A stretch of 64,000 nt of DNA from Candidatus Omnitrophota bacterium (lineage in GTDB: Bacteria; Omnitrophota; Omnitrophia; Omnitrophales; Aquincolibacteriaceae): the NCBI GenBank assembly GCA_022709525.1, contig JAKLIQ010000001.1, forward strand, positions 78,709 to 142,708, written 5' to 3'. The notes below the pieces were generated by a model. The model saw nothing but the letters and a program-made list of their open reading frames with translations, had not been told where the DNA came from and did not search any database. Below, one piece after another: positions 3,585 through 35,962 of the stretch; positions within the stretch are counted from its first letter, which is position 1, and each line of letters opens with the position of its first letter. The translations under genes and the position numbers were made by a program.

Positions 3585-4913
3585 ATGAAAAAAATGACAC
3601 TGCTTCTGAAAGGTATGGCCGCCATTTTTGCCATGATTGCTTTTCCCAAGATCCTGTTGGCCTCGGAGACAGCGCCACTTGCGGTGAACGGGGGGGATAC
3701 TGCATGGGTGCTGATCTCCGCGGGGCTTGTTTTTTTGATGACCCCCGGGCTCGCGTTCTTCTACGGCGGCTTGGTCCGTAAAAAGAACATGCTCTCGGTC
3801 CTCATGCAATGTTTCATGCTGATGTGTCTTATGACCTTGCAATGGGTCGTGATCGGCTACACGCTTTCCTTCGGCCCGGACGTTAAAGGAATGATCGGCA
3901 ATTTAAGCTGGGCGGGTCTGCATGGGGTTGGCGTAGAGCCCTTTGCCGATTATTCGGCCACGATCCCGCATCAAGCGTTCATGATCTTTCAGGCGATGTT
4001 CGCGATCATCACGCCAGGGCTTATTTTGGGCGCGTTCGCGGAACGCATGAAATTTTCCGCCTTTTGCGTCTTTTCACTTCTCTGGGCGACTTTTGTTTAC
4101 GATCCTGTTTGCCATTGGGTCTGGGGCGTGGGCGGTTTCTTGAGGAATTCAGGCGCTCTGGATTTTGCCGGCGGTACCGTCGTGCACATCAATGCCGGCA
4201 TCGCAGCGCTTGTCTGCGCCCTTGTGCTCGGTAAAAGAAAAGGTTATCCCGGACATATGTCGCCTCCACACAATCTTCCGTTCGCCGTATTGGGAGCGGG
4301 GTTGCTTTGGTTCGGCTGGTTCGGTTTCAACGGGGGAAGTTCGTTGGCCGCGAACGGCCTTGCGGCAAGCGCCCTTGTGGTGACCCACATTGCCGCTGCG
4401 GCCGCAGGACTTACCTGGTCGCTGCTGGAATGGAAGATCAGCTCAAAGCCGACCATGCTCGGCATGATCACGGGTGCGGTCGCGGGGTTAGTCGCGATCA
4501 CGCCGGCTGCGGGATTCGTCACACCGATCGATGCCATCTGGATCGGCGCCGGCGTTTCCCTGATCTGCTATTTCTTTGTCGCGGTGGTCAAAACCAAGCT
4601 GGGTTATGACGATTCGCTCGACGCTTTTGGCGTTCACGGTATCGGCGGCATCTGGGGCGCATTAGCCACAGGCCTTTGGGCCACCAAGACGGTCAATCCG
4701 GCCGGCAACGACGGCCTTTTTTACGGGAATCCGGGACTTTTTCTGATCCAGCTTAAAGCCGTGGCCGTGACGATCGTTTATTCATTCATTATTTCTTGGG
4801 TTCTCTTGAAGATCGTAGACGCCGTGATGGGTCTGCGCGTTTCGGAGGACGAAGAACGCATCGGGCTTGATCTTACGCAGCATCGTGAATCTGGTTACAC
4901 CATTCTGGATTAA
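3585..4913 (+). CDS. amtB: Ammonium transporter (Amt family)
   Basis: Multi-TM protein with Amt signature regions (AWVLISAGLVFLMTPGLAFFYGG..., HINAGIAAL...). GGAGG lies 7 nt before the ATG at 3585. It is followed by glnK. Confidence 0.9.
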   Translation: MKKMTLLLKGMAAIFAMIAFPKILLASETAPLAVNGGDTAWVLISAGLVFLMTPGLAFFYGGLVRKKNMLSVLMQCFMLMCLMTLQWVVIGYTLSFGPDVKGMIGNLSWAGLHGVGVEPFADYSATIPHQAFMIFQAMFAIITPGLILGAFAERMKFSAFCVFSLLWATFVYDPVCHWVWGVGGFLRNSGALDFAGGTVVHINAGIAALVCALVLGKRKGYPGHMSPPHNLPFAVLGAGLLWFGWFGFNGGSSLAANGLAASALVVTHIAAAAAGLTWSLLEWKISSKPTMLGMITGAVAGLVAITPAAGFVTPIDAIWIGAGVSLICYFFVAVVKTKLGYDDSLDAFGVHGIGGIWGALATGLWATKTVNPAGNDGLFYGNPGLFLIQLKAVAVTIVYSFIISWVLLKIVDAVMGLRVSEDEERIGLDLTQHRESGYTILD

Positions 4914-5030: not shown

Positions 5031-5372
5031 ATGAAATACATTGTCGCAGTGATTCAGCCAGACCGGGTGGACGAGGTCCTCCGGATCCTTGAAGAAAAGG
5101 AGATCCATCTTGTGACGGTTTCGACTGTTCTCGGCCGGGGCCGGCAGAAGGGCATCTCGGAAGTTTACCGCGGCCACAAAGAAGGCGGCCGGCTTCTCAA
5201 GAAGGTTAAACTCGAGATCGCCGTCAACGAAGAATTTGTGAAAGCGACCGTGGACGCGATCAAGGAAGGCGCGCGGACCGGCCATGTCGGCGACGGAAAG
5301 ATCTTTGTTCTCGATCTCGCGGAATGTTTCCGCATCCGTACCGGCGAAACGGGAAAAGTCGCGATCGGATGA
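5031..5372 (+). CDS. glnK: Nitrogen regulatory protein P-II
   Basis: 112-aa P-II protein with the T-loop GRGRQKGISEVYRGHK, which includes the Tyr uridylylation site context. It lies downstream of amtB. Confidence 0.9.
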   Translation: MKYIVAVIQPDRVDEVLRILEEKEIHLVTVSTVLGRGRQKGISEVYRGHKEGGRLLKKVKLEIAVNEEFVKATVDAIKEGARTGHVGDGKIFVLDLAECFRIRTGETGKVAIG

Positions 5373-27253: not shown

Positions 27254-28981
<1,728 letters not shown>

Positions 28982-29227
28982 GATGACAGGCCTCCTTTCA
29001 GGCAGGGATCGAAAGCGCCAGCCCGGCGCTTTGATCGAGAAACGAATAATACACCCGCCGTCAAGTGGACGGAAGCCGTTCGCCCTTTCTGTTTTGCTAT
29101 CCAATGCCGAACCAGCCATTGCGCAAGCATAGCTAATGAGCCGTTCCGGGCATATTCCGGAGGCGGCTCGGGCATCTCAAAATCTTCGATGGTCAGATCT
29201 CTGGATTTATCAGCTCTATCCCGATCC

Positions 29228-30061
29228 TTATGTGCAGGATGGATCAGAGACAGCACCTCCCTTGTAGCGTTTATAGCGCTGTTTATAAAACTCTTCTTTC
29301 TCAAACCGGCGGAGTTCTGCTTCCGCCTTGTGGATTTCGTCGTACTCGTCAACGAAGTCCTCATCAAACTCAAGATAATTGTTCAAAACGAGTGTGCTGT
29401 TCTTTTTGTTGACGAAAGTTGTTTCTCCTTCGCGTCTGAGCAGTTCCTCCATCGTTGCGAAATAGAAACACTCCGGACAATGTTCAAGTTTCTTGAACCA
29501 CTCGATCATCGATTTTCTTTCCACGAGATAGAGAAAGGCGCTGATGCCCTCGTTTTTGACCCAGGTATCTATGAGCACCCGATCATAATACCGCTTACTC
29601 TTCAGCGTCCGTTCGATCTCGATCACAAAACTGTGTTTTCGGCCATCATCAGCCAGGCCATCCGGGACCTTTCTCCGTTCCGTCTTACTTTTCAACACGC
29701 GCTCAGATGTCCAGATGAGCCCCGGAGAACGCTCTAGGATAATACGCGCATCCGTGACCCAAACATCGTGCTCGTAGATTTTCAGGTCCACTCCATCCAG
29801 CGGTCGTAGTCCGTTCGACAGATCCAGGCTCCTCAGGTGCTTTACGCCTTTGGCGGTCGTGAGATAAAGCGTGTCATGACCGACCCTTGGCTTCACGGCT
29901 TTCAAATAACCCTGTCGCATCAGGAGATTCACTCTTCTTGCCGGGACCTTGTACATGCTCAGGCTCTCGGGGAAGAACTTCTTGGCGATATGCCTCAGGA
30001 GCAGAAACTTCTGCTCAAGGCACATCTTCAGGATCTCCGAATCTCTTTCTGTAATGATCAT
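29228..30061 (-). CDS. Hypothetical protein with N-terminal winged-helix-like region (possibly replication-relaxation family)
   Basis: N-terminal helix-turn-helix-like region ILKMCLEQKFLLLRHIAKKF...LMRQGYLK and an acidic C-terminus. It lies in the recombinase island. The family assignment is a guess. Confidence 0.3.
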   Translation of the reverse strand: MIITERDSEILKMCLEQKFLLLRHIAKKFFPESLSMYKVPARRVNLLMRQGYLKAVKPRVGHDTLYLTTAKGVKHLRSLDLSNGLRPLDGVDLKIYEHDVWVTDARIILERSPGLIWTSERVLKSKTERRKVPDGLADDGRKHSFVIEIERTLKSKRYYDRVLIDTWVKNEGISAFLYLVERKSMIEWFKKLEHCPECFYFATMEELLRREGETTFVNKKNSTLVLNNYLEFDEDFVDEYDEIHKAEAELRRFEKEEFYKQRYKRYKGGAVSDPSCT

Positions 30062-30235
30062 CCGCTACTTGTTCCTTATCTGATTTCGTGAGAGACATAT
30101 TAAAAATTGATCTGACGGTGGAGCGATCTGCGTCGTGTCATTTTTGTGATCTTCAAATCTCCGGTACTTCTTGGGCTTTAGCGCCGTGTTAGCAACCAGG
30201 CTTTAGACTGGTCTTGGTTTTTATTTATAATTTCA

Positions 30236-30587
30236 AATACCCCTCATGGGACATTGAGTTAAGGAGGGGGCGTTCAACGTTTGCGCACATTTTTATACTT
30301 GAAATAAATTTTCACGAACATCGATCTGATCCATTTAACCTGTCCGAAAGATCCCAAATTCTCCGGAAACCGTTCCGCAAGAAAATCATCAATTTCCCAA
30401 ACAAGCCTCTCATGGGAGGTCGAGTTACGACATGGTCGTTCACACCAAACGAACATTTCTAAGCTTGAAATAAATTTTTCAGCGATTTTGTCCGCCTTTC
30501 TTTTACCTTGATAACCCCTCATGGGAGGTCAATTTACGACATGGGTGTGACGCTTTTGGGAAGGTTTTTAAGCTTGAAATAAAGTTT
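30236..30587 (+). repeat. Three imperfect direct repeats of 75-80 nt (30236-30311, 30405-30479, 30514-30587), iteron-like
   Basis: Each unit has the form cctcatgggaggtcRaKttacgacatgg...cttgaaataaaKttt. Peptides encoded inside are not conserved between copies, so a DNA or RNA function is more likely. Confidence 0.6.
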
Positions 30588-31027
30588 ATCGCATAGCAAC
30601 TGCCACTCGGATAAAAGCTCCGGAGGGATTAAGGTCTTGATAGGTAAGAACCCAAAGAAGGAATCTTAAAGGTCGTCTTTTGTTTATGCCCGGTCCACCA
30701 GAGGACGGATCTGTCTAACGCGATGTGGCAGATAAGAACCGGGGAAAGTTAAGAGCATGGGGACATTCAAAACGATATATTTCTTAAAAACAGAAGAAAG
30801 GATTATCCCTATCCAGCCCAGATTCATTTCAACAGCTTGCCCGAAGCCCGTCACAATGCAGCCGACCACTCCATCTCGCTCCAACAGATTATGAGAGGGA
30901 GTGGTCGGGTGCACGCAACAAGGGCGAAGGGCAAGCGCTGATTGAACTTAAGTAGGGCTGGACTGGTGGAATCCATTCCCTCACTTCATTCCACCGACCT
31001 GACCCGATCGAAATCGGTCAAAAATGT

Positions 31028-31072
31028 GAATGGTATACTCGACTTTACAAATGGTATATCGAATGGTATACT
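31028..31072 (+). promoter_or_regulatory. Three tandem (G/A)AATGGTATA(C/T) boxes upstream of fic
   Basis: gaatggtatac, aaatggtatatc and gaatggtatact lie 40-85 nt upstream of the fic ATG. Three similar boxes lie at 32138-32181. Confidence 0.5.
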
Positions 31073-31113
31073 GATGTTGAAGCTAGACCGTTAACCGAAA
31101 CAGAGGTGCAACC

Positions 31114-32151
31114 ATGAATTCCTTCAAGAATGATAATCTCGAAATGCCTTTAAGCTCGGTTTGGCTGCTGAGCGGGATCTCGGAGTACAAAGGCAAGCAG
31201 GAACTTTACACAAAGCAGGCACCGCAGGTCCTTAAAACCCTTATTGAAATGGCGCTAATCGAAAGCGCGGAATCTTCCAACCGCATCGAAGGCGTCACAG
31301 TTGACCGGGAACGTCTTAAACCGCTCGTTATCGGTCATAGCAAGCCCCGGGACCGCTCTGAAGAGGAAGTGGCCGGATACCGCAAGGCCCTCGACCTGAT
31401 TCATAAAAAATACGACACCTTGCAGATCACTCCGGATCTTATCAAGGAACTGCATCGTTTATGCCGGGGTGAATCATGGGATGCCGGGAAGTGGAAGGAG
31501 AAGGATAACGACATTATCAAAAAATACCCCGATGGCCGCGTGGAAGTGATCTATAAGCCCGTTAGCGCGGCGAAAACACCGGAGGCCATGGAGCAACTGT
31601 GCCTTAGCTACAGACATAGCATCGATCAGCTGAGATACCCTTCGCTTTACGCCATCGCCTGCCTTGTTCTTGATTTCCTCTGCGTCCATCCTTTCCGGGA
31701 CGGGAACGGCAGGGTTTCCAGGCTTCTGACATTACTGGCGCTTTATCAACACGGGTTTATGGTGGGAAAATATATCAGCATCGAGCGCATTGTGGAGCAG
31801 TCCAAGGAAACGTATTACGAGACGCTCAACAAAAGCTCACAGCAGTGGCATGAGGCCAAACATGATGTCCTTCCGTGGTTTAATTATTTCCTGGGGACCA
31901 TTACCGCTGCCTACAAGGAATTCGAAGAACGCGCCAGCCATGCAAGCCCGGAACGGGGCGCCAAGACCGGCATTGTCGAGGCCGCGGTTGATCGGCAGCT
32001 TGGAGAATTCAGTATTTCCAATATTGAGCAAGAGTGTCCGAATGTCAGCCGGGTCATGATCAAAAAAGTTCTCAGCCAGATGAGCAACGCCAAAAAGATC
32101 AAATGCCTCGGCAAGGGCAAGTCAGCCAAGTGGTTGCGAATGGTATCCTAA
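31114..32151 (+). CDS. fic: Fic family protein (class II, with an internal inhibitory SxxxEG helix and a C-terminal winged-helix)
   Basis: Fic motif HPFRDGNGRVSR; inhibitory motif SAESSNRIEGV near the N-terminus. Confidence 0.9.
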   Translation: MNSFKNDNLEMPLSSVWLLSGISEYKGKQELYTKQAPQVLKTLIEMALIESAESSNRIEGVTVDRERLKPLVIGHSKPRDRSEEEVAGYRKALDLIHKKYDTLQITPDLIKELHRLCRGESWDAGKWKEKDNDIIKKYPDGRVEVIYKPVSAAKTPEAMEQLCLSYRHSIDQLRYPSLYAIACLVLDFLCVHPFRDGNGRVSRLLTLLALYQHGFMVGKYISIERIVEQSKETYYETLNKSSQQWHEAKHDVLPWFNYFLGTITAAYKEFEERASHASPERGAKTGIVEAAVDRQLGEFSISNIEQECPNVSRVMIKKVLSQMSNAKKIKCLGKGKSAKWLRMVS

Positions 32152-32181
32152 GTCTCGCGATGGTATATCAAATGGGATATT
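32138..32181 (+). promoter_or_regulatory. Second set of three ATGGTATA-like boxes, overlapping the fic stop and preceding nuc
   Basis: gaatggtatcc, gatggtatatc and aaatgggatatt lie immediately upstream of the ATG at 32187. Confidence 0.45.
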
Positions 32182-32186
32182 AACGA

Positions 32187-32723
32187 GTGCACATGCGAAA
32201 AAACATCTGCTGTATAGTTGTTCTGATCATTATTTTTCTCTCCATCCCCGCATCGTTGCAAGCCAAACAAACGGCCACCGATGAGCAGGTTTATTTTTCC
32301 CCTAAAGGTGGATGCACAGAGGCCATTGTCAAGAATCTGGATCAGGCCGAAAGATATGTGCTTGTTCAGGCATATTCCTTCACGTCGAAGCCCATTGCCG
32401 AAGCTCTCGTCGACGCGCACAAGCGCGGCGTGAAAGTAAAAGTGCTTTTGGACAAGAGTCAGCGGAATGGCAAAGGGAGCAAGCTCTCCCTATTGGCTGA
32501 GGCCGGGATACCTGTCAGCATTGACACCAAACACTCGATTGCTCACAATAAGGTTATGATTATCGACGGCGTTACTGTAATCACGGGTTCTTTCAATTTT
32601 ACCAGCGCCGCCGAAGACAAAAACGCCGAAAATCTTTTAGTCGTTAGAGATAAGGTTATCGCGAGGAAATACCGCAATAACTGGAACAAACATCAGAAGC
32701 ATTCCGAGCTGTATCAGATATAA
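32187..32723 (+). CDS. nuc: Secreted phospholipase-D superfamily endonuclease (Nuc-like)
   Basis: Signal peptide; HxK(x4)D motif IAHNKVMIIDG; size and organization like plasmid Nuc. Confidence 0.8.
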   Translation: MHMRKNICCIVVLIIIFLSIPASLQAKQTATDEQVYFSPKGGCTEAIVKNLDQAERYVLVQAYSFTSKPIAEALVDAHKRGVKVKVLLDKSQRNGKGSKLSLLAEAGIPVSIDTKHSIAHNKVMIIDGVTVITGSFNFTSAAEDKNAENLLVVRDKVIARKYRNNWNKHQKHSELYQI

Positions 32724-32801
32724 AATATGCGGCGAGATAAAAACCGATGTATTCCTTGAATGACAGAGATAGAGGAATTGAAAATGAGGAGGAAATGCCA
32801 A

Positions 32802-33530
32802 ATGAAAAAAGCGATTTTAGCGTTGTGTGGGATAATGTTATTAATGCTCGAAACATTTACGCCCTGCTGTGTTGCCGAGGAAAGCAAAAGATATACGGAT
32901 GAATTTTTATTCGTCAATTCTTATCTTGAGTGCTTAGAAAATTATATATCTATTCAAACATATGATGGTCTTATGGTAACAGGAAAGGCCAATTATTCTT
33001 CCGAAGAAGTTGTCAACAGCGCTTTTATGAAACAATTAAAAAAAGAACAGGAATTCATTTCGGAAATGATTCGTGCAATGGGAAAATATTCCGATTCTCC
33101 GGTAGATAGCATCAAGAACGCCTCCAATACAATTTTGGAAAAATATCAGAAAATGCAAGCTCTGAACACCAAAGCGCAAGATGCATATTTTCATGTGAAG
33201 ACGGGGCAATTTAAGGCGGGCATTTTGACCGGCAGCGAACTTTTCGATGAAAAGCAAGCTATTGAAAGCGGCATGTTTTTTGAGGAAGAAAATTTAATGA
33301 GACAAATTTTGTTTCCCAAAGGTAGCTCTGTAATGAAAATAACTGCCGAAGAGAAAAAACAGCTTCAAGAAAAAATAAGAAGCTTAAAACAGATCAGCCT
33401 TGCCAAGGAGCATTCTATTGGCGAAGGAGAGTATTTAGTGGCCGAGGGAGGACAGTTTCTCAAATTTTTTTTACAGGCTTTCCAACGATTTATAGATATT
33501 AATTTTCCTTGTTTGAAAACAGTAGCGTGA
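32802..33530 (+). CDS. Secreted hypothetical protein, low GC
   Basis: Signal peptide MKKAILALCGIMLLMLETFTPCCVA. RBS gaggagg lies 9 nt upstream. The alternative start is 32784. Confidence 0.4.
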   Translation: MKKAILALCGIMLLMLETFTPCCVAEESKRYTDEFLFVNSYLECLENYISIQTYDGLMVTGKANYSSEEVVNSAFMKQLKKEQEFISEMIRAMGKYSDSPVDSIKNASNTILEKYQKMQALNTKAQDAYFHVKTGQFKAGILTGSELFDEKQAIESGMFFEEENLMRQILFPKGSSVMKITAEEKKQLQEKIRSLKQISLAKEHSIGEGEYLVAEGGQFLKFFLQAFQRFIDINFPCLKTVA

Positions 33531-33627
33531 AATAGCTGTGGTGTTTTAGTTCCGCTTATGCATCGCTTATTTTAAAACGAAACTCCAGAATTTTGAGCGA
33601 GGTAGGCCCAAAAGGAGATGCTATAAA

Positions 33628-34311
33628 ATGACTATGGAAGCGCACTGTTTCCAAAACGTTCAATGGATTAAATTTATCTTGCCGATCTTTGCGACATTTC
33701 TTGGCGCTTGGCTCGCTTTTTTCTTGCAAAATCGTAGGGATGCTAAAAAACAGGAAAAAACCAACTATGGAGTACTTTTAAAAACACAGGCGTTATTTTA
33801 TGAATATTTTGAAGCTATTTATTCGGTCAAAAAAGATTTTTTAGACCAGCATGCAAAAGACGCAGAGAGATCAACAAGGGTTAAGCATATTAGTCTTTGC
33901 CAAAAGTTCTCTGAGCTTGATTTCGAAGGCATATCCTTTATCCTTACAACAAAAAATCCGGACTTGTTTGGTGATATTGTATGCACCTATAGAAAGTGCG
34001 TTTCGGCTATAGAAGCCATTAATGAGCGCAATAAGCAATACGGAAAATACAGCGGAGGGATTGCCAAAAGTATCGATTTGGGAAGTGGCAAATCTCAGGT
34101 AGATTTAATATTTCTTAGAGATTTTACAGACATTATGTATAGGGAAACGGATCAGGTGCTACAACGCATTAAACAAATCGACGGTGAATTACAGCAATTC
34201 ATAAAAGAAAAATTTAAAGGGAAACATGCCCTGAAAGTTACTTTTGTCGAGACTGCGACGCAATGCGCCAAAGGAAATGCAGACGGAGGCGGTCATGAAA
34301 CCGTCGCTTAA
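33628..34311 (+). CDS. Membrane-anchored hypothetical protein (one N-terminal TM helix)
   Basis: RBS aaggag; TM segment FILPIFATFLGAWLAFFL; no recognizable domain. Confidence 0.4.
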   Translation: MTMEAHCFQNVQWIKFILPIFATFLGAWLAFFLQNRRDAKKQEKTNYGVLLKTQALFYEYFEAIYSVKKDFLDQHAKDAERSTRVKHISLCQKFSELDFEGISFILTTKNPDLFGDIVCTYRKCVSAIEAINERNKQYGKYSGGIAKSIDLGSGKSQVDLIFLRDFTDIMYRETDQVLQRIKQIDGELQQFIKEKFKGKHALKVTFVETATQCAKGNADGGGHETVA

Positions 34312-35161
34312 AAATAAGATATTAAACTATATCGCTATGGGGTTTATTTTTTCCCCATGTTTATTGCCCCCTTTTCTTTGGATTAGATTGCTTGCGGTTG
34401 ATATCGATGTTAAGTTGAAAATAATGTGCCTTGCCTTTTTCAGCGCCGTCGTTCCTCTTATGATTGTCATTCTCGGTTTTGCCTGGGTTTGTTTTTTTGC
34501 AGTTTGCCTGTTCTTTAAAAATGTTTTCGACGAAACATTTCGTAATAAGCATGATTCATATCGAGATAATGATAAATGGCTCAGTGAAACCTTCAGTGAT
34601 GTTCATAAGCTTTTTAATAAGTGGGATAAATCAGAGAGGTGGAAAAAAACCAACGCAACGCTTCTGTGTGTCTTTTTTTTATCGGGAGCAGGAATTTCTT
34701 GGATTGATTTCGACCATAGAATTAAAGTGAAAACCGATAATCTTTCAAACATTGTTTCCATGAACATCATTGGGGATATCGATTTGCCAGTTTCTAAGCA
34801 AGGCCTTGTAAAACAGCGTGGTCTCCCAAAATCTGTTGATGTCCGATACCGGGGCGATGGGAAGAAATACAAGTTTGAAACATTGAGTTATGACTGGGCG
34901 GCCGGGCAAATGGAGGTTGTTTTCGTCAATGACAACTATGCGGATGGAATTGTTCGATATAAGCCGACGGATTTAAGCGTAAAAGTTTTGTTGCGTGATG
35001 TGTCGCACGTAAAGCAAAAGCCTTTGAAGTCTTATACCATTAGCGTCGTGAATACTAACGGCAAAACTTTATTAATTCGTGTCCAAAAAAATCAAAAAAT
35101 AAGTTCGATCACATATTTTGGTTCTTCCGCAAAGAAAGGGGCGATAAGACTGCTCCGATAA
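34295..35161 (+). CDS. Polytopic membrane protein with a C-terminal beta-rich soluble domain, hypothetical
   Basis: It overlaps the upstream ORF by 17 nt. GGAGG lies 5 nt before the ATG. There are 4-5 predicted TM helices. Confidence 0.4.
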   Translation: MKPSLKNKILNYIAMGFIFSPCLLPPFLWIRLLAVDIDVKLKIMCLAFFSAVVPLMIVILGFAWVCFFAVCLFFKNVFDETFRNKHDSYRDNDKWLSETFSDVHKLFNKWDKSERWKKTNATLLCVFFLSGAGISWIDFDHRIKVKTDNLSNIVSMNIIGDIDLPVSKQGLVKQRGLPKSVDVRYRGDGKKYKFETLSYDWAAGQMEVVFVNDNYADGIVRYKPTDLSVKVLLRDVSHVKQKPLKSYTISVVNTNGKTLLIRVQKNQKISSITYFGSSAKKGAIRLLR

Positions 35162-35214
35162 GGGATCATTTTCGATATAACTATCAAAGAAGTTGTTTTT
35201 ATCTGGAGCAAGTT

Positions 35215-35691
35215 ATGGGTCATTGGGATCGCAAGAATGTTCCGCAAAAAGGATGGGAATGCATTGATTTCTATGATTTATGTGCCGATGCGAATGAAGT
35301 TTATGCAACATGTGAAATGTGTGGGCAAGAGCGAATACGATATGTTCATGTAATGCGGCATCCAGATTTTTATGACGACTTGTTGGTTGGCTGTGTATGT
35401 GCCGGAAAAATGTCAGATGACTATGTCAATCCTGAAAAACACGAAAAGATTCTGAGTAATCGATCAAAACGTCGAAAAAGTTGGCTGAGCCGAACTTGGC
35501 GAGTATCGGCAAAGGGTAATGATTTTCTTAATGTTAAGGGGCATAACGTAACCATTTTTCCAGCAAAGTATCGATTAGGCCATTGGTGTTTTAAGATAGA
35601 CGATGATTTTAATCAAAATACCTATGAAGACAAAAATCGCGCAAAATTGGCGGCATTTGACTTGCTGCAAAAATATAACGAAAAAATTTAG
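35215..35691 (+). CDS. Cys-rich (CxxC...CxC) zinc-finger-like hypothetical protein
   Basis: CEMCGQ...GCVCAGK cysteine cluster. It is the last gene of an apparent three-gene operon. Confidence 0.4.
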   Translation: MGHWDRKNVPQKGWECIDFYDLCADANEVYATCEMCGQERIRYVHVMRHPDFYDDLLVGCVCAGKMSDDYVNPEKHEKILSNRSKRRKSWLSRTWRVSAKGNDFLNVKGHNVTIFPAKYRLGHWCFKIDDDFNQNTYEDKNRAKLAAFDLLQKYNEKI

Positions 35692-35950: not shown

Positions 35951-35962
35951 TACCAATTGAGA

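Follow-up and report, generated by a model that had tools for sequence, protein, structure and literature searches.

Long direct repeats and a conserved hairpin beside a MOB_C-like gene: a possible origin-of-transfer-like region in an integrative element of Omnitrophota

The non-coding region adjoining a relaxase-like gene in an Omnitrophota chromosome contains three direct repeats of 73 nt, which are real, strongly conserved DNA modules of a non-coding control region. Together with a hairpin located farther along the same region (H1), these modules may form an origin-of-transfer (oriT)-like cis region of an integrative mobilizable element (IME), spanning positions 30165 to 30995 of the window (the whole 64-kb stretch of DNA analyzed here), in which the repeats would serve as a relaxase binding array and H1 as the processing site; we give this interpretation an even chance of being correct. 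The kind of system is already known, i.e., a MOB_C relaxase, a direct-repeat binding site, and an inverted repeat within an IME. What is new is that the modules are an order of magnitude longer than known binding repeats, that they fall into three anciently diverged subtypes, and that they occur in a phylum for which we know of no described transfer origin and no documented conjugation.

Three direct repeats in a 1052-nt intergenic region

The repeat units are situated in an intergenic region of 1052 nt (30062 to 31113), which is flanked on its minus-strand side by a gene specifying a 277-amino-acid (aa) protein (29228 to 30061, −), followed by the gene for a large serine recombinase (27254 to 29119, −), the element integrase, in which the Pfam domains Resolvase, Recombinase, and Zn_ribbon_recom were identified. 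On the plus-strand side, genes for a Fic protein and a PLD-family nuclease are located together with four low-GC genes without an assigned function, and uvrB and murB flank the block as a whole. By these Pfam domains, a preliminary description of this DNA was correct in placing the repeats between a large serine recombinase module and fic.

Units 1 (30240 to 30312; subtype 1, CCCCTCATGGGACATTGAGTTAAG...GTTCAAYGTTTKCGAAC...CTTGAAATAAATTTT), 2 (30406 to 30478; subtype 2, CCTCTCATGGGAGGTCGAGTTACGACATGG..TTCACACCAAACGAAC...), and 3 (30515 to 30587; subtype 3, CCCCTCATGGGAGGTCCRTTTACGACAKGGGTGTTCATGGTTTGGGAAGGTTTTTAAGCTTGAAATAA) are each 73 nt in length, lie on the plus strand, and align without gaps, with nhmmer E values of 1e-17 to 1e-21 between copies and with similarity falling away in the flanks at the unit borders. 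The three repeats of the preliminary description, the coordinates of which lay within 1 to 4 nt of these refined ones, are thus confirmed and align significantly, and their spacings, given as ~170 and ~110 nt, measure 166 and 109 nt from start to start. The shared 5′ string that had been reported, ggaggtc..ttacgacatgg, is present in units 2 and 3 (GGAGGTC..TTACGACATGG) but not in unit 1, which reads GGGACATTGAGTTAAGGAGGGG there, and the embedded small open reading frames (ORFs; MGH, MGGRVTTWSFTPNEHF, and MGGQFTTWV, each closed by a stop codon) were found as stated.

A 5′ motif, CTCATGGGANNTNNNTTWA, and a 3′ motif, CTTGAAATAAANTTT, each occur exactly three times in the 64 kb, invariably within the units, compared to 0.03 and 0.12 expected occurrences, respectively, and none of 100 shuffles (0/100) reached three occurrences. 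No units besides these three were detected elsewhere in the 64-kb window. Each unit ends in a T-rich run, and the GC content of the repeat region is 39 to 42%, compared to ~53% in the flanks.

Conserved blocks also border the units. Block A (CTTGGGCTTTAGCGCCGTGTTAGCAACCAGGYTTTRGACTGGTC; 30165 to 30231, +) contains a sigma-70-like promoter, block C (GGRTAAAAGCYCCGGAGGGATTAAG; 30600 to 30640, +) is located immediately 3′ of unit 3, and block E, an inverted repeat (GGTGGAAT-N15-ATTCCACC; 30965 to 30995), represents the last conserved backbone bases before the variable cargo. The promoter (30202 to 30231, +; TTTAGA/TTGGAC-17/18-TATAAT) is aimed at unit 1, with the form TTTAGA-18-TATAAT in the window and TTGGAC-17-TATAAT in L001, L007, and L251 (L numbers denote related loci). 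In four lineages, such a promoter-like site precedes unit 1 by 7 to 9 nt, the predicted start being the first bases of unit 1, and it is missing in L003 and L050, where the subtype 1 unit is missing. As the promoter is directed into unit 1, transcription of the units may occur; no annotated gene is present for ~500 nt downstream of it.

A constant backbone with exchangeable cargo

Comparison with related loci by blastn revealed a sharply bounded conserved backbone of 3.65 kb (27345 to 30995), which consists of the integrase gene, the 277-aa relaxase-like gene, and a non-coding region of ~0.9 kb containing the repeats and H1. Similarity to L006, L007, and L251 ends at 30995, beyond which each carries different cargo, and cargo exchange may take place at this boundary, which might alternatively act as an insulator. 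At the opposite end, homology with four related serine-recombinase elements was observed to stop exactly at 27345, 91 nt before the recombinase stop codon. This position is probably the element end (att site), and the C terminus of the recombinase would therefore be completed by flanking DNA. In L251, the element was found at the same uvrB-adjacent site.

Among the related loci, L003 carries the same Fic-PLD set as the window, with 96% identity up to position 35959, while a Fic gene accompanied by a pilin-like gene is present in L001, AbiEi/AbiEii and a SIR2-STAND protein are encoded in L007, and a giant DnaJ-domain protein is encoded in L006. The integrase is also exchangeable, a tyrosine integrase occupying the place of the serine recombinase in L001 (where an HTH_17 protein is additionally encoded) and in L008/L009; at the loci inspected, the 277-aa gene family was always found beside a serine or a tyrosine integrase. 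Because the core is constant and the integrase and cargo are variable, these loci are viewed as a family of small integrative elements, of which the window holds a member of most likely ~9 kb, located in an Omnitrophota chromosome between roughly 27345 and position 35959 or beyond. Database names of homologs assign the host to Candidatus Omnitrophota.

Within the window cargo (31114 to 35691), the Fic protein matches the PADLOC model SoFic (E value of 1e-37) and the PLD nuclease matches DrmC models; the four following cargo genes (GC content of 37 to 41%) yielded no family match. On the basis of such profile matches, the cargo looks like anti-phage defense, represented by SoFic and the PLD nuclease here and by AbiE and SIR2-STAND functions elsewhere. 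Just upstream of fic, positions 31028 to 31072 contain three copies of AATGGTATA(Y), two of them exact (GAATGGTATACT), which overlap a TTTACA-17-TATACT promoter; these repeats, also present in L001 and L003, resemble an operator of the Fic cargo module. A 45-codon ORF (MGTFKTIYFLKTEERIIP...; 30757 to 30894), which extends into H1, was also noted. Its first ~15 residues resemble those of ORFs at the same place in L001, L006, L007, and L262, the frames diverging across H1, and it could be a leader peptide or a chance frame.

Distribution and conservation of the repeat units

Outside the window, a unit profile located one to three units upstream of 277-aa gene homologs at nine other independent loci of Omnitrophota (L001, L003, L006, L007/L252, L009, L010, L251, L255, and L262), the proteins encoded downstream of the units exhibiting 43 to 97% identity to that of the window. 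Three units are present in L001/L002, L007/L252, L251, and L262, two in L003 to L005 and in L006, and one in L255; L008/L009 harbor one good and one degenerate unit, and L010 harbors one degenerate unit. This linkage of units and gene holds regardless of integrase type (serine or tyrosine) and cargo. The distance from the gene start upstream to the array is 179 nt in the window and 37 to 534 nt in the other loci, with unit 1 beginning only 37 to 38 nt from the start codon in L006 and L262, and unit spacings in the other loci range from 99 to 166 nt.

The units fall into three subtypes, which occur in the same order across loci, such that unit 1 is orthologous to unit 1 elsewhere; identity is 81 to 89% within a subtype and 65 to 69% between subtypes. 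Orthologs of subtype 1 are present in L001, L006, L007, L251, and L262 (mean within-subtype identity of 81%). Unit 2 is 100% identical in L001 and 89 to 92% identical in L003, L007, L251, and L262 (subtype mean of 89%), and unit 3 is 81 to 85% identical in L001, L006, L007, L251, and L262. As the three subtypes keep their order across loci, the triplication is considered old and maintained. The alignment of all 20 distinct units is free of gaps and yields the consensus cCcCTCATGGGAggTcg..TTAcGaca.gg..gTTCA...ttt.cGAAc.TTt.TAaGCt.gAAATAaatTTt, in which the conserved blocks are CTCATGGGA, TTACGAC, GTTC-N9-GAAC, and the A/T-rich end TAAGCTTGAAATAAATTTT; the 5′ motif is found in the variants CTCATGGGAGG, CTCAAGGTAAGG, and CCATAGTATTGGG.

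In the three most divergent loci of the unit-bearing group (L006, L007, and L262), the units retain 78 to 92% identity to the window, compared to 74 to 77% for the winged-helix part of the 277-aa gene and 59 to 65% for its remaining C-terminal part. H1 is 87 to 88% identical in L006 and L007 (the L262 contig ends before H1), the region between positions 30641 and 30829 is 23 to 57% identical, and the inter-unit spacers range from 6 to 84%, the minimum being reached where a whole unit and its spacer are missing. These comparisons indicate that the units are conserved above the coding sequence and that selection acts on the unit DNA itself. Two further explanations of the units were considered and discarded. 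Scars of repeated insertions do not account for three subtypes whose order is maintained and whose conservation exceeds that of coding DNA, and arm-type or att sites of the integrase do not account for units which persist where a tyrosine integrase replaces the serine recombinase.

Beyond the unit-bearing group, the distant loci L257 and L261 possess direct repeats of their own beside H1, namely, three tandem 45-nt copies containing CCYCTCAAGGTAAGGTCAGTT in L257 and two copies of TCCATAGTATTGGGCAAAAA in L261, with a 5′ motif related to that of the 73-nt units. No match to the 1052-nt intergenic region was obtained by blastn against plasmids (PLSDB) and phages. A scan of metagenomic and viral sequences with the weakly specific pattern TTYYTAAGCTNGAAATA retrieved one true unit (L050) among the 240 stretches listed, and viral contigs yielded no match to unit and H1 patterns of higher specificity. 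Outside these elements, no relative of the repeat modules is detectable. In L050 (4272 to 4414), block A and a subtype 2 unit, 93% identical to the window, were observed upstream of an unrelated gene for a small membrane protein of 129 aa rather than a relaxase-like gene, from which it follows that the unit module can exist without the latter. In L003, ~70 nt of additional DNA, which bears a terminal hairpin (TCCCGAC...GTCGGGA) and may represent a miniature insertion, interrupts the second unit (~5300 to 5372, −) close to its 3′ end.

The adjacent 277-aa protein resembles MOB_C relaxases

The AlphaFold model of the 277-aa protein (pLDDT of 82.7) places a MarR-like winged helix at the N terminus and a PD-(D/E)XK nuclease domain at the C terminus, a predicted fold like that of MOB_C relaxases. 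Across 24 relatives, residues H97-D98, T102, R105, W116, E119, K130-V-P-D-G134, E147, E149, K153, and Y158 are invariant and include the catalytic residues KVPDG/ExE/K. The family profile aligns the segment KVPDG..hhEVERTLKNKRYY with the region KVPDRLAELDGRTVAFEVERTVKS of CloDF13 mobC (E value of 1.7e-5 in a small search). No PF13814 match above threshold was obtained by Pfam analysis of the window protein itself; the NCBIfam model MobC_subf (“MobC family replication-relaxation protein”) matches it with an E value of 2.9e-8 and 33 bits, relative to a cut-off of 200. PF13814 matches were recorded in 10 of the 24 relatives at an E value of ≤0.01 (best, 4.8e-7), and a precomputed PF13814 annotation exists for five homologs. 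A PDB sequence search with the family profile returned chance-level matches only. At the level of sequence profiles, the protein therefore appears to match the MOB_C relaxases (PF13814, Replic_Relax) weakly but consistently, and the Rep gene that the preliminary description suggested should be looked for corresponds to a gene of this replication-relaxation (MOB_C-like) family directly adjoining the units.

MOB_C relaxases, with which PF13814 is equated, occur in IMEs that have serine integrases, and the relaxases of some integrative elements additionally initiate rolling-circle replication (PMC5357655). For the Replic_Relax family, plasmid replication has been cited as a role, and a function as transcription regulator has been predicted from fusion to HTH domains (PMC3424549). 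The TraX protein of pAD1 combines a winged helix with a restriction-endonuclease-like domain and binds five direct repeats located 70 to 120 bp from nic (PMC12857230).

The only plasmid homologs are encoded by the Bdellovibrio plasmids pBdHAGR4 and pBdHAGR5 (L264 and L263; ~11 kb each), with 28% identity. There, the homolog overlaps a downstream gene for a TraD/TrwB-type coupling protein and is preceded by an inverted repeat with 32-nt arms. Both plasmids, which carry these MobC-like and TraD-type coupling protein genes, are typed as “non-mobilizable,” and genes for an Avd-like protein (as in diversity-generating retroelements) and for a mosaic adhesive trimer fiber protein were observed nearby. 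A search for a coupling protein among the tested genes of the window element and the called genes of the inspected Omnitrophota loci was negative, and no type IV secretion system (T4SS) gene is present in the element.

A conserved hairpin accompanies the gene family

H1 (GCTTGCCC...CCGACCACTCC...GGAGTGGTCGG...GGGCAAGC; 30835 to 30936) is a hairpin of ~100 nt and a candidate processing (nic) hairpin. Its predicted DNA fold has a free energy of −35 kcal/mol (z score of −7.6), and in an alignment of 11 loci, compensatory changes affect 7 of the 21 consensus pairs, with the central helix intact throughout. H1 is located ~250 nt beyond unit 3 in the window and ~10 to 35 nt from the gene start in the distant loci L009, L010, L255, L257, and L261. 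Comparable long inverted repeats are found 80 to 100 nt upstream of more distant homologs (L253, L254, and the Bdellovibrio plasmid L264). Among the cis features of the family, a long hairpin is consequently the most general one, the 73-nt units being characteristic of the Omnitrophota subfamily. Long hairpins of another type, closed by CCYGGGCATGCC...GGCATGCCYGGG, were observed in L050 (~4070 to 4195), L261 (~585 to 705), and L009 (~4500 to 4545) and are absent from the window.

Functional interpretation of the repeat units and H1

Under the oriT-like interpretation, the winged-helix domain of the 277-aa protein would bind the repeated units as double-stranded DNA, and the protein so bound would build a relaxosome-like complex. 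Once the integrase has excised the element, the nuclease domain would cut at or near H1, resulting in transfer and/or rolling-circle copying, and the unit array may also autoregulate the divergent promoters. In favor of this proposal, the non-coding region from 30165 to 30995 adjoins the relaxase-like gene. It is further favored by the linkage of the units to this gene family, by the conservation of their DNA and the constant order of the three subtypes, by the predicted fold and catalytic motif of the protein, by the coupling protein gene next to the Bdellovibrio homologs, by the presence of a long hairpin throughout the family, and by the separate repeats of L257 and L261. The closest parallel is oriT2/TraX of pAD1 (and also pAM373 and CloDF13 MobC), where the relaxase likewise combines a winged helix with a PD-(D/E)XK nuclease and the cis site adjoins its gene (PMC12857230). 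In pAD1, a large inverted repeat is accompanied by a series of direct repeats that forms a binding site distant from the cut site (PMC12857230), as is proposed here for the units. The two systems differ in that the direct repeats are 5 to 6 bp long in pAD1, whereas those of the Omnitrophota elements are 73 nt long, are present in one to three copies of three diverged subtypes, and lie ~250 nt from the hairpin; moreover, the Omnitrophota element is devoid of a coupling protein, and its intergenic region shares no sequence similarity with any PLSDB plasmid. A compact chromosomal relaxase-integrase module is also known from streptococcal IMEs of class 8, which combine a serine integrase with Rel_PF13814/MobC and a VirD4 coupling protein (PMC5357655). 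The Omnitrophota elements, in contrast, encode no coupling protein, may carry a tyrosine integrase and an HTH_17 protein instead (L001), and possess an unusually long conserved non-coding region.

Several observations argue against the oriT-like interpretation. The units are unevenly spaced and far longer than the pAD1 repeats, and H1 varies in its location with respect to the repeats, lying beyond them in the window and next to the gene start in L009, L257, and L261. The missing coupling protein and T4SS genes, the lack of documented conjugation in Omnitrophota, the sub-threshold profile scores, the promoter directed into unit 1, and the L050 unit beside an unrelated gene also count against it.

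Classical iterons measure 17 to 22 bp, are regularly phased, and in most cases have DnaA boxes and an AT-rich unwinding element at their flanks. The main idea of the preliminary description was that the units are iterons or the origin of an integrated plasmid-like element, which in terms of the present data would make them iteron-like sites of a vegetative origin at which the Replic_Relax protein acts as replication initiator of the excised circle. An integrated mobile element is indeed present, and the name of the “replication-relaxation” family, for which plasmid replication is among the cited roles (PMC3424549), the position of the repeats next to the gene, the GC content of 39 to 42% versus ~53% in the flanks, and the initiation of rolling-circle replication by some integrative-element relaxases (PMC5357655) are all consistent with such an origin. 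As in the theta plasmids pSC101, R6K, and P1, multiple direct repeats which vary in number between relatives lie beside the gene for a DNA-binding protein, here a predicted one; however, theta-plasmid iterons are short and phased and are accompanied by DnaA boxes, whereas the Omnitrophota units are 73 nt long with irregular spacings of 166 and 109 nt. No DnaA box (TTATCCACA, ≤1 mismatch) was found in positions 30062 to 31113, and the GC content beside the repeats is only moderately lowered and does not amount to an AT-rich unwinding element. The protein fold, moreover, is predicted to be that of a nuclease with a winged helix-turn-helix (wHTH) domain, as in MOB_C relaxases, rather than that of a Rep_3/RepA-type initiator, and the nearest plasmid homologs are paired with a coupling protein. 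With a relaxase-type neighbor, classical iterons do not fit, and a vegetative origin appears rather unlikely. A similarly doubtful proposition is that the units take no part in DNA processing and instead form an operator or promoter array, by means of which the divergent promoters of backbone and cargo are controlled by the wHTH protein or by a host factor. The prediction that Replic_Relax proteins are transcription regulators, derived from HTH fusion (PMC3424549), would suit this function, as would the distance of 37 to 38 nt between unit 1 and the gene start codon in L006 and L262 and the conserved TTGGAC-17-TATAAT promoter abutting unit 1. The nuclease catalytic residues are, however, invariant over 24 relatives, which argues that the protein is more than a repressor, and the covarying hairpin of ~100 nt and the fixed integrase neighborhood would be left unexplained. 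Control of promoters by the array is compatible with the oriT-like interpretation, the two not being mutually exclusive.

It is improbable that the units constitute a family of small RNAs, or a single multi-unit non-coding RNA, transcribed on the plus strand from the promoter at 30202 to 30231. The promoter-like site that precedes unit 1 by 7 to 9 nt in four lineages, the T-rich run closing each unit, and the folding of units 1 and 2, which is somewhat better than that of shuffled sequences (z scores of −2.5 and −2.8), would agree with transcription into RNA. Unit 3, on the other hand, folds no better than shuffled sequences on the plus strand (z score of −0.44), nor do any of the three units on the minus strand (−0.19 to −1.28), and RNAalifold analysis of 20 units yielded −3.4 kcal/mol and no compensatory pairs. 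The candidate helices CCTC-N4-GAGG and GTTC-N9-GAAC were rejected, as neither exhibited a compensatory change and the observed pairing was below the shuffled mean. Across the 64 kb, Rfam returned nothing at the gathering threshold and, at E values of ≤10, only chance-level miRNA and snoRNA matches, none of them on the units. Because no hairpin precedes the T-run, it is not an intrinsic terminator; neither unit 2 nor unit 3 possesses a separate promoter, and L003 and L050 retain units yet are devoid of the promoter. The small-RNA alternative raised in the preliminary description accordingly finds no structural support in a covarying fold or an Rfam match, the promoter into unit 1 leaving room for transcription as such. 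A repeat of the type III toxin-antitoxin RNA kind was also discarded, as the units are neither head-to-tail nor abutting cargo toxin genes, which vary between loci. That the units are short peptide genes of 16 codons (MGGx[VF]TTxxFxxxExF), repeated three times, is extremely unlikely. The 16-codon frame with its conserved TAA is open in 11 of the 22 units, and two more possess longer open frames, but 9 of the 22, including window units 1 and 3, contain an in-frame stop or lack a start. Differences are distributed as 124, 144, and 150 over codon positions 1, 2, and 3, i.e., with no third-position bias, and differing codons are synonymous in 44 cases versus non-synonymous in 246; no Shine-Dalgarno sequence is present upstream, and the best-conserved part of the unit lies 3′ of the stop codon. 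No conserved peptide signal was thus found in the 22 units, and the earlier argument for a function at the DNA level rather than through peptides is borne out by the interrupted frames and the codon differences. Two ORFs of 82 aa that cross the units, one on each strand, were likewise dismissed, being neither conserved nor biased in codon use.

We also regard it as very unlikely that the units and H1 represent the cis apparatus of a mobile island of an undescribed, self-contained kind that would occur in Omnitrophota and in related bacteria of predatory or epibiotic habit. In such an island, a restriction-endonuclease-like protein would assemble on the 73-nt modules (perhaps transcribed), process the hairpin, and move or copy the defense cargo without conjugation machinery, either by a new DNA-processing route or with unit transcripts as nuclease cofactors.

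Implications for gene transfer in Omnitrophota

Omnitrophota are, to our knowledge, an uncultured phylum in which the mechanisms of gene transfer are essentially unknown. Should the oriT-like interpretation be wrong, the units would still be among the most conserved non-coding sequences of these elements and would require another explanation. If it is correct, long modules which are better conserved than the relaxase gene would broaden the known form of MOB_C-type binding sites. Since the elements carry swappable, defense-like cargo, the 3.65-kb backbone (27345 to 30995) and the signatures of the units and H1 would then provide practical markers for defense islands in Omnitrophota genomes, and the region described here would represent the first recognizable mobilization (oriT-like) region in this phylum and would define a family of small integrative elements there.
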